Virus record (IMG/VR): IMGVR_UViG_2718218139_000010 | Location: 1-35,239 of that record | Direction: 5' to 3' (one strand) | Source: a virus | Lineage: Duplodnaviria > Heunggongvirae > Uroviricota > Caudoviricetes | Length of the DNA stretch: 35,239 nt | In this document: piece by piece, positions 12,001 to 15,000 of the stretch | Numbering within the stretch: the first letter of the stretch is position 1 | How the letters are laid out: every line of letters starts with the position of its first letter | Program-made: the position numbers

Positions 12001-15000
12001 AGCGGATACCATTCGGCATTTATCAGTATTCATCACACACTCAACGGTGAATTCTTCATGCGTGGCATTCACTTCATATGTTCGTGAATAACATTCAGTG
12101 CATTTACCTCTGAACACCTCTTCAAGCAGAACACGGCCATGTTGCAAAACACGGAACGGAATTGTTCCCTGAAAAGGTTTTACCGTTACCTGTAATTTCT
12201 TCATACATCCTCCGGATAATAAAAAGCCTGCTTAGTACACTGAGTGCGGATATAGTCCTGTGCCCCTTCCACCTGCTTCTGCATTGTCATCAATCGTTCT
12301 CTGAGGATGAAATAATCCCGTTCAGCGGTGTCTGCCAGTCGGGGGCCGGTTGCATTATCCACGCCGGAGGTGCCGGTGGCTTCACGCACGGTACCGGGGC
12401 AGGTGGCGTTGATCCGCAGGCGCTTACGACCAGCGGCAACATCAGCGCGCAGAGTTTCATTTTCAGCTCTCGCATCGGCTAATTCCCTCGAGTATCTGGC
12501 ATCAAGTGCAGCAACATCACGCTGGCGCTGCTGCATATCAGTAATGGTTGCATTTGCCAGCTCCAGCTCACTGACTTTTTTATCGCGCTGCTCTTTGTAG
12601 GTTATGGCGTTATCACGGTAATGATTCAGCCCCAGACTAAGCGCACCACAGGCCACCAGCAGGGCAATGATGACCACGCACAGTACGCGGTTCATTTCAC
12701 CACCAGCGTATCTGACCAATGAAATAACCGGAAGCCATAATCACAAACACCAGCCAGATAAGGATGAACTTCCAGGTGGATAATTTTTCAGCCATCATTC
12801 GAATCTCCCGAATCAGTTTGCTAAAATCAAACACACTTTCTCCTTTGACTTTTCCGGAGTCAGGAAACACAAAACCCCGCTTGCGGCCAACAAACGGGGT
12901 TTTACTTTTATTCACTTAGTTTTTGCCAGTTCGCAGGATTTCGTGTTATCCGCCCGCGTGAGCAAACCGCATTTTTCAGCAAAATATTCTGCTTATCTGT
13001 CAATTCCCCAGCACGCCAGCGCGCTCTCCTGGTCACGCCGTGAGACCTGACCGTAGCAGTTGTTTGAGCGAATACGGCAGTCTCTGCCACCGTCCTTAAT
13101 CCACCAGCGAATCGCCTCGCATGCTCCCCTGCGGTCACCAGCATTAATCCGTCTGTAAAACGTCGACGGGAAACACTTACCGGGGCCAATGTTGTACGGA
13201 CAGAATGACGCAATCCCCGCTTTCTGGGGTTCGGTCAGTGGCACTCTGATGTTTTTCTCCACCCATGCCAGCGCCTTATCACGTTCAATGGCGTTAACCT
13301 GGTCGCATTTTTCCTTCGACAACTTCATGCCCGGGACGACTGAGGTAGCCTGAGTTTAACGGACACTCCTTCCTGAAATAGAATGGCATCAGAAGGAGCT
13401 AATAATGAGCAGAAAAACCCAACGTTACTCTAAAGAGTTCAAAGCCGAAGCTGTCAGAACGGTTCTTGAAAATCAACTTTCGATCAGTGAAGGCGCTTCC
13501 CGATTATCTCTTCCTGAAGGCACTTTAGGACAATGGGTTACCGCCGCCAGAAAAGGGCTCGGTACTCCTGGTTCCCGCACGGTGGCTGAACTGGAATCTG
13601 AAATTCTGCAACTGCGTAAGGCGTTAAATGAAGCTCGCCTTGAGCGAGATATATTAAAAAAAGCAACAGCGTATTTTGCACAGGAGTCGCTGAAAAATAC
13701 GCGTTAATCGAACAATGGCGACAACAATTTCCCATTGAAGCGATGTGTCAGGTATTTGGTGTATCCAGGAGCGGTTATTACAACTGGGTACAGCATGAAC
13801 CCTCAGACAGAAAACAAAGTGATGAGCGGCTAAAACTGGAGATTAAGGTGGCACATATCCGCACTCGCGAAACATATGGAACCCGGCGGCTCCAGACGGA
13901 GCTGGCAGAGAATGGCATCATCGTTGGTCGTGACCGACTGGCACGTCTTCGTAAGGAGCTAAGGCTACGCTGTAAGCAGAAACGCAAGTTCAGAGCGACT
14001 ACGAACTCGAACCACAATCTGCCAGTTGCGCCAAATCTGCTGAACCAGACGTTCGCTCCTACAGCACCAAATCAGGTCTGGGTGGCGGACCTGACGTATG
14101 TTGCCACACAGGAGGGATGGTTGTACCTCGCTGGCATCAAAGATGTTTATACGTGCGAAATTGTCGGCTACGCCATGGGAGAGCGCATGACAAAAGAGCT
14201 GACAGGTAAAGCCCTGTTTATGGCGCTCAGGAGCCAGCGCCCACCTGCCGGGCTAATCCACCACTCTGATCGAGGTTCACAGTACTGCGCATACGATTAC
14301 CGGGTCATACAGGAGCAGTTTGGTCTGAAAACATCAATGTCGCGTAAAGGTAACTGTTACGACAACGCTCCGATGGAAAGCTTCTGGGGAACGCTGAAAA
14401 ATGAGAGCCTGAGCCACTATCGTTTTAATAACCGGGATGAAGCCATCTCAGTAATACGGGAATACATTGAGATTTTCTACAATCGTCAGCGTCGTCACTC
14501 TCGTCTGGGGAATATCTCCCCGGCAGCCTTCAGGGAAAAATATCATCAGATGGCTGCTTAAAAAAAGAACAAATGGTAGTGTCCGCTATTGCCAGTACAC
14601 CTCAGACAGGTTTACCATCCACCAGGATGGCACCGCGGCAGATGGTCCAGATACCCGCACCATCACGGTATGCCGTGGTGTGGTTACCTTCTTTTTCGTC
14701 AAGAAACTGGTCGAGGATTTCAGGCGCAGACGCCCCTGCACCAATCAGCGCCAGAACGGCAGCCGACAGGCCGTATCTGATTTTTGCGTTCATGGATATT
14801 TATCAGGGTTTATCGATTTCAAATCCCTGGATATATTAAGTCTTCAGGCCAGCGGTGGAGTCTTCAGAGAACCAGTAATTATTCCCGGTAGTTTTCCTCT
14901 GTAGGTTATCAACACATCCTGCGCCTCTAAAATGATGGGCCGCTTTTCCGGCAACGGACCATCCCCTTCACATAACCCGGCAGCAACATCCATGAAAAAC

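Follow-up and report, generated by a model that had tools for sequence, protein, structure and literature searches.

IS600 interrupts a predicted SAR endolysin gene in an effector-carrying lambdoid prophage of the EHEC O145:H25 type

The insertion sequence IS629/IS1203v reportedly inactivates prophage genes in O157:H7. This IS3-family element is said to enter genes of lambdoid prophages with a 3-bp duplication, to aid prophage immobilisation, and to be reversible in principle by precise excision. The locus described here differs from those cases in both the IS species and the target gene. The inserted element, IS600, is known to have expanded in EHEC O145:H25, where no other IS is as common in chromosomes (PMC7437938). 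The O145:H25 strain CFSAN004177 (CP014670; Lorenz et al. 2017, PMC5567499) contains more than 50 IS600 copies, 45 of them with complete ends, as well as 14 prophages including defective ones, and IS600 disrupts genes in this strain, among them the IS-excision-enhancer gene iee (PMC5567499). Among the nearest known counterparts of the target gene are the endolysin genes R of phages 21 and 933W. Nearly all Stx-type phages are thought on prediction to pair a SAR endolysin with a pinholin, and in the literature, too, such proteins are termed “predicted” SAR endolysins (PMC8136144).

We analyzed a window of 35,239 bp, which is the whole stretch of viral DNA (Caudoviricetes) contained in IMG/VR record IMGVR_UViG_2718218139_000010. 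In this window, the minus-strand endolysin gene R (12993-14793) is interrupted by an IS600 copy on the plus strand (13341-14604). A first-pass annotation had described an IS600-like insertion that splits a SAR-endolysin gene here with a clean 3-bp duplication, and our analysis recovered both the split and the duplication. The lysis region is organized as follows:

12201-12695, minus strand: i-spanin gene Rz (PF03245), downstream of the split R
12290-12475, minus strand: o-spanin gene Rz1 (PF06085), embedded in Rz
12993-13340, minus strand: C-terminal part of endolysin R, codons 64-177 plus stop, with the left-hand GAC copy at 13338-13340
13341-14604, plus strand: IS600 copy 1 (IS3 family, 1264 bp), antisense to the phage late operon
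13405-13707, plus strand: IS600 orfA, 100 aa, HTH_Tnp_1
13656-13662, plus strand: A7 slippery run (A AAA AAA, then G) for the predicted −1 programmed frameshift that gives the OrfA-OrfB fusion
13743-14561, plus strand: IS600 orfB, 272 aa when counted from its first ATG, with HTH_21 and the rve DDE integrase core
14602-14604, minus strand: TGA stop of the R stub, formed by the terminal TCA of IS600 (junction CCTGTC followed by TGAGGTG)
14605-14793, minus strand: N-terminal part of endolysin R, codons 1-63, with a SAR-like segment (residues ~8-23) and E35, D44 and T50
14605-14607: right-hand GAC copy, within the N-terminal part of R
14844-15188, minus strand: DUF1327/YdfR-family ORF between holin and endolysin
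15193-15399, minus strand: S21-type (pinholin-family) holin, 68 aa, apparently intact (PF04971)

IS600 copy 1 opens with TGAGGTAGCC and closes with ACACCTCA. The two ends form inverted repeats (5'-TGAGGT...CGGACAC) that are imperfect, agreeing at 19 of their first 27 positions; they end 5'-TG...CA-3' and carry TGAGGT at both ends when read inward. The triplet GAC lies directly outside each end (13338-13340 and 14605-14607), with one copy at the empty site; by itself, a 3-bp match between flanks has a chance of 1/64. GAC on the plus strand corresponds to GTC in gene R. The intact R allele reads GTC GTC at codons 63-64, and the interrupted allele has one GTC ahead of IS600 and two behind it, as expected from a 3-bp duplication. 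Removal of the element together with one GAC copy (13341-14607) restored a single unbroken minus-strand ORF of 177 aa (start at 14793, end at 12993), so the two halves indeed rejoin in frame to a continuous lysozyme ORF (PF00959), whereas removal of 13341-14604 alone gave an R ORF with one additional Val codon. In the interrupted allele, translation from the R start yields a stub of 63 aa that stops straight after codon 63 and contains no IS-encoded residues. The only ORF of the R remainder begins at an internal ATG (13328, M67); it encodes 111 aa, which include neither the SAR segment nor the catalytic triad.

Along its entire 1264 bp, the inserted element matched several RefSeq features annotated as “IS3-like element IS600 family transposase” with 100% identity, and its size agrees with the length of IS600. 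The orfB frame is open from 13644 and overlaps the A7 run, and the identical 1157-nt coding sequence is labelled “programmed frameshift” in RefSeq. The predicted −1 OrfAB fusion matched the IS3 transposase model NF033516 of NCBIfam over its full length (1-369/369) with 414.5 bits (cut-off 160). Thus, the label “IS600-like” was too cautious, and the element is best classified as IS600 proper. Of 5,426 complete E. coli genomes, 1,613 contain full-length copies, counted as matches to at least 80% of the query. In a terminator scan, the minus-strand hairpins inside copy 1 were weak.

The restored R protein matched the Phage_lysozyme profile PF00959 from position 2 to 125 of 125 (3.3e-24, 86 bits, cut-off 22.3). 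It aligned without gaps to R of phage 933W (94% identity), and its DNA was 97.8% identical to R of H-19B. The alignment to the endolysin of phage 21 was end-to-end, as the first-pass annotation had proposed to check. The structures matched were those of R21 (PDB 3hde and 3hdf) and RrrD (4zpu), with the 3hde match covering residues 9-174 including the N-terminal segment (5.4e-17). The Glu-8aa-Asp-5aa-Thr triad (E35, D44, T50) was invariant in an alignment with 933W R and R21, and the computed alignment to 3hde gives identical columns. Residues 8-23 (GLSAAVLALIGAGASA) are weakly hydrophobic, consist of 69% Gly/Ala/Ser, have a mean Kyte-Doolittle value of ~1.5, and align with the SAR region of R21 in 3hde. 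Two genes upstream of R lies the S21-type holin (PF04971, “Bacteriophage P21 holin S”, 2.1e-32). In sequence, restored R and this holin thus have the features typical of a SAR endolysin and its pinholin, SAR behaviour being predicted. The likeness to the phage 21 and 933W systems comprises full-length homology, the triad, the Gly/Ala-rich N-terminal segment, and the neighbouring holin. The prophage locus differs from them in that R is interrupted, a DUF1327 ORF stands between S and R, and the upstream Met found in the 71-aa isoform is missing from the holin.

This holin is 92% identical to 933W S and is also annotated as 68 aa in the public assembly PVMG01000001.1. In the holin region (15193-15420, minus strand), Ile replaces the first Met of 933W S (IHQMEKITT instead of MYQMEKITT). 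Since a start codon is left only for the 68-aa form, the longer isoform, which serves phage 21 as its antiholin, appears to have been lost. An ORF of 72 aa with a hydrophobic C-terminal half lies between R and Rz (12697-12915, minus strand). It had no match in Pfam or NCBIfam and is conserved on 169 contigs under the label “hypothetical protein”. Within the 5' part of this ORF falls a strong hairpin (AAAACCCCG...CGGGGTTTT, ~12872-12908), so that the internal Met may be the true start of the ORF.

Pfam scans of the ORFs in the window provided the following map of the remaining prophage:

1-987, minus strand: Peptidase_M85/NleC-like effector gene (8e-113)
1241-3613, minus strand: SopA/NleL-like effector gene (SopA-like E3 ligase, pentapeptide repeats; NleL/EspX7-like)
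4496-4831: N-terminal tail-fibre stub, 111 aa
5804-8335: ISEc23 (IS66 family, 2532 bp) with TnpA, TnpB and a 537-aa DDE transposase
8466-10127, minus strand: large terminase gene TerL
10124-10687: small terminase gene TerS
15842-17692: SASA esterase gene
18931-19626: antiterminator gene Q
25313-26359: DnaT-like replication gene
~27216: cI-like repressor gene
30116-32554: exonuclease gene
32815-34078, plus strand: IS600 copy 2, 1264 bp
34121 onward: integrase gene

Both type III effector genes sit at the tail-fibre end of the prophage. No tRNA genes were found in the window, and the Pfam scans of its ORFs found no stx genes. Two ParD/ParE-type toxin-antitoxin modules are present in this one prophage (21457-22019 and 27645-28123, both on the plus strand). 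The ParE_toxin match of the second module is on ORF 27836-28123, and ParE and ParD of the 21457-22019 pair are both recorded in PVMG01000001.1. A 683-bp direct repeat with 87% identity links positions 4923-5605 and 20656-21338. To the left of ISEc23 lies a DUF968-region fragment of a lambdoid early-late module, pointing to a patchwork of two prophage segments.

The first-pass annotation had regarded the insertion as a simple event without other rearrangement. This is true at the R locus but not of the entire prophage. IS600 copy 2 equals copy 1 at 1264 of 1264 positions, which suggests recent insertions; the two copies lie in direct orientation 19,474 bp apart, and copy 2 is flanked by its own TTC/TTC duplication. 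Excision of copy 2 restored an 89-aa ORF between exo and int that only just passed the threshold of the excisionase profile PF07825 (23.2 bits, cut-off 23). ISEc23 is located between TerL and the tail-fibre stub, and its 8-bp flanks are unlike (CTTTCGCA and TGATCACC), without target duplication. No portal, head or tail genes were left in the window according to the Pfam scans. The unlike flanks indicate that ISEc23 marks a rearrangement junction at which the head and tail genes were lost. In addition, one in-frame stop interrupts TerL at codon 335 (9123-9125), where read-through would give 553 aa, and the same split is found in the 100% identical assembly PVMG01000001.1. With the second IS600, the ISEc23 deletion junction and the TerL nonsense codon, the endolysin insertion is one of several disabling lesions.

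Taken together, these data make it very probable that IS600 inserted at codon 63/64 of R in a lambdoid, non-Stx, effector-carrying prophage of the EHEC O145:H25 type, where it would have ended muramidase production as one lesion of several. An active IS600, with its OrfAB DDE transposase made by −1 frameshifting, would have transposed into this codon pair. It is evident from the sequence itself that 3 bp of the target were duplicated, that the R site is otherwise unchanged, and that the gene is split into the 63-aa stub, terminated immediately by the TGA of the IS600 terminus, and a promoterless C-terminal remainder. That lysis is knocked out, as the first-pass annotation put it, we infer from the predicted products. 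The stub retains the SAR segment and the triad residues but only some one third of the fold, and the remainder has neither export segment nor triad; hence, neither piece is expected to be an active muramidase. Once induced, the prophage would still have its pinholin, which could depolarise the membrane, but it would be unable to degrade the wall unaided and would need the endolysin of another prophage. Endolysin paralogues on other prophages, of which 14 are present in CFSAN004177 (PMC5567499), could supply muramidase in trans if co-induced. The insertion would be one of many in a lineage where IS600 expansion has produced more than 50 copies. Combined with the IS600 insertion in xis, the ISEc23-bounded loss of morphogenesis genes and the TerL nonsense codon, it would anchor the prophage in the chromosome, together with its NleC-like and NleL-like effector genes. 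No evidence contradicts the structural part of this account.

Whether the insertion had any consequence may depend on the state of the prophage at that time. The prophage may already have been dead, without head and tail genes and with its TerL carrying a nonsense codon, by the time IS600 entered R, so that the insertion disabled nothing of importance and IS600 simply accumulated in dispensable DNA as it expanded in this lineage. We give this reading an even chance. The junction between TerL and the tail-fibre stub, where ISEc23 has no target duplication and morphogenesis genes are missing, and the stop at TerL codon 335 are both consistent with it, as are the more than 50 IS600 copies and the inactivated iee of the lineage (PMC5567499) and the complete identity of the two IS600 copies in the window. 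However, a defective prophage with intact Q, pinholin, endolysin and spanins is still able to kill its host on induction, so that losing R or xis could still bring an advantage. Furthermore, the relative timing of the lesions is not readable from one sequence. The R insertion may have been without phenotypic effect on arrival, and between selection (domestication) and a neutral passenger, we lean slightly toward a neutral or weakly beneficial insertion.

It appears unlikely that the two IS600 copies are selected “locks” against excision of an effector prophage and lysis of its host rather than random hits. In this reading, they would as direct repeats also prime a 19.5-kb deletion of the whole early region or its mobilisation as a composite element, and because restored R is 100% wild type, precise excision of the IS3-family kind (IEE-type) could in principle re-arm lysis. 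Two direct copies do predict a recombinational deletion of 19.5 kb.

For the origin of the R insertion itself, intact alleles provide the decisive evidence. Restored R was identical at 534 of 534 nt to lysozyme genes that are annotated, uninterrupted, in many complete E. coli genomes, O111 and O121 included, and 94 records were at least 99% identical to the restored 534-bp gene. Elsewhere, up to 13 copies of R-type genes occur per E. coli genome. The intact 534-bp alleles represent the true empty site of IS600 copy 1. The complete match to this empty site and the intact target duplication show a simple insertion, in agreement with the first-pass annotation, with neither an adjacent deletion nor a hybrid join. 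A hybrid join, in which the R halves stem from different endolysin paralogues that were united by homologous recombination between two IS600 copies, would be conceivable in a genome rich in IS600 that harbours several lambdoid prophages with paralogous lysis genes, and IS600-bounded deletions do exist. In O121:H19 strain 2014C-4423 (NZ_CP027454.1, 3321381-3328912), IS600 lies in the same antisense orientation in the paralogous R of a related prophage, and the neighbourhood of holin, DUF1327 and SASA esterase is 97.6% identical. That insertion arose independently and lies 132 bp deeper in R (321 nt retained versus 189). Its IS600 marks the edge of a deletion in which the late region, with the C-terminal half of R, the spanins and the terminase, has been lost, and chromosomal uspF/ompN follow. 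In contrast, the insertion in the window is clean and both R halves are kept. The same GAC triplet on both flanks, the identity of the rejoined gene to one natural intact allele, and the canonical order of holin, DUF1327 and Rz/Rz1 on the two sides of IS600 leave a hybrid join highly improbable and effectively refuted.

An exact protein look-up found the 63-aa stub in public assemblies, where it is deposited as “lysozyme [Escherichia coli]” (AOM53789.1, AOM61999.1). PVMG01000001.1 (GCA_003015325.1) is 100.000% identical to window positions 4602-24793 (20,192 bp) and has the same junction. CP014670.1 is 99.946% identical over this stretch, with gaps as the sole difference, and also has the same junction. 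Although IS600 is a high-copy repeat in the lineage and draft assemblies often break inside R, a repeat-induced misassembly that placed IS600 into an intact R is the least probable explanation of all, since junction, flanks and duplication recur identically in at least two assemblies of chromosome scale that were deposited separately (PVMG01000001.1 and CP014670.1), the stub protein stands under two GenBank accessions, and misassembly would not yield a perfect 3-bp duplication.

A megablast search with junction-spanning sequence detected no R::IS600 junction in 5,426 complete RefSeq E. coli genomes, and neither the GTDB species representatives nor IMG/VR contained an exact junction pattern. 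The two megablast hits with at least 80% coverage were two-piece joins. One was the different IS600 insertion in the paralogue of strain 2014C-4423, and the other (NZ_CP065615.1, 284958-292642) had an intact lysozyme gene between two IS600 copies. At the latter locus, Rz likewise lies between the two copies, and an IS600 occupies the holin position beside prophage tRNA genes. Short contigs retrieved by the look-up of the 63-aa stub (L005-L012) seemed to carry the same insertion in other prophage backgrounds, as if codon 63 were an insertion hotspot. This was ruled out: the contigs merely stop within 2 nt of codon 63, two of them (L008 and L011) go on with G and GT like the intact gene and unlike IS600, and the protein cluster also contains partial fragments of many other lengths. 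The 63-aa fragments are thus a selection effect of an exact-length look-up, and these contigs are assembly breaks.

CP014670, the chromosome in which the IS600 expansion of O145:H25 was described (PMC5567499), contains the same element and the very R::IS600 allele found here, and the window almost certainly belongs to the same lineage. The word “lysozyme” occurs nowhere in the main text of that paper (PMC5567499), and our literature search found no paper on IS600 in a prophage endolysin gene or on a 3-bp target duplication of IS600. The R insertion therefore appears to have been deposited but not discussed in print. The allele is already public and the underlying process is published; it is a routine event, which raises no new question and matters little beyond bookkeeping. 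For annotation, the two R fragments belong together as one pseudogene, and the insertion may serve as a lineage marker for O145:H25-type strains. For the biology of these prophages, it is a clean textbook case of how IS expansion degrades and fixes EHEC prophages, with NleC-like and NleL-like effector genes retained in this one.
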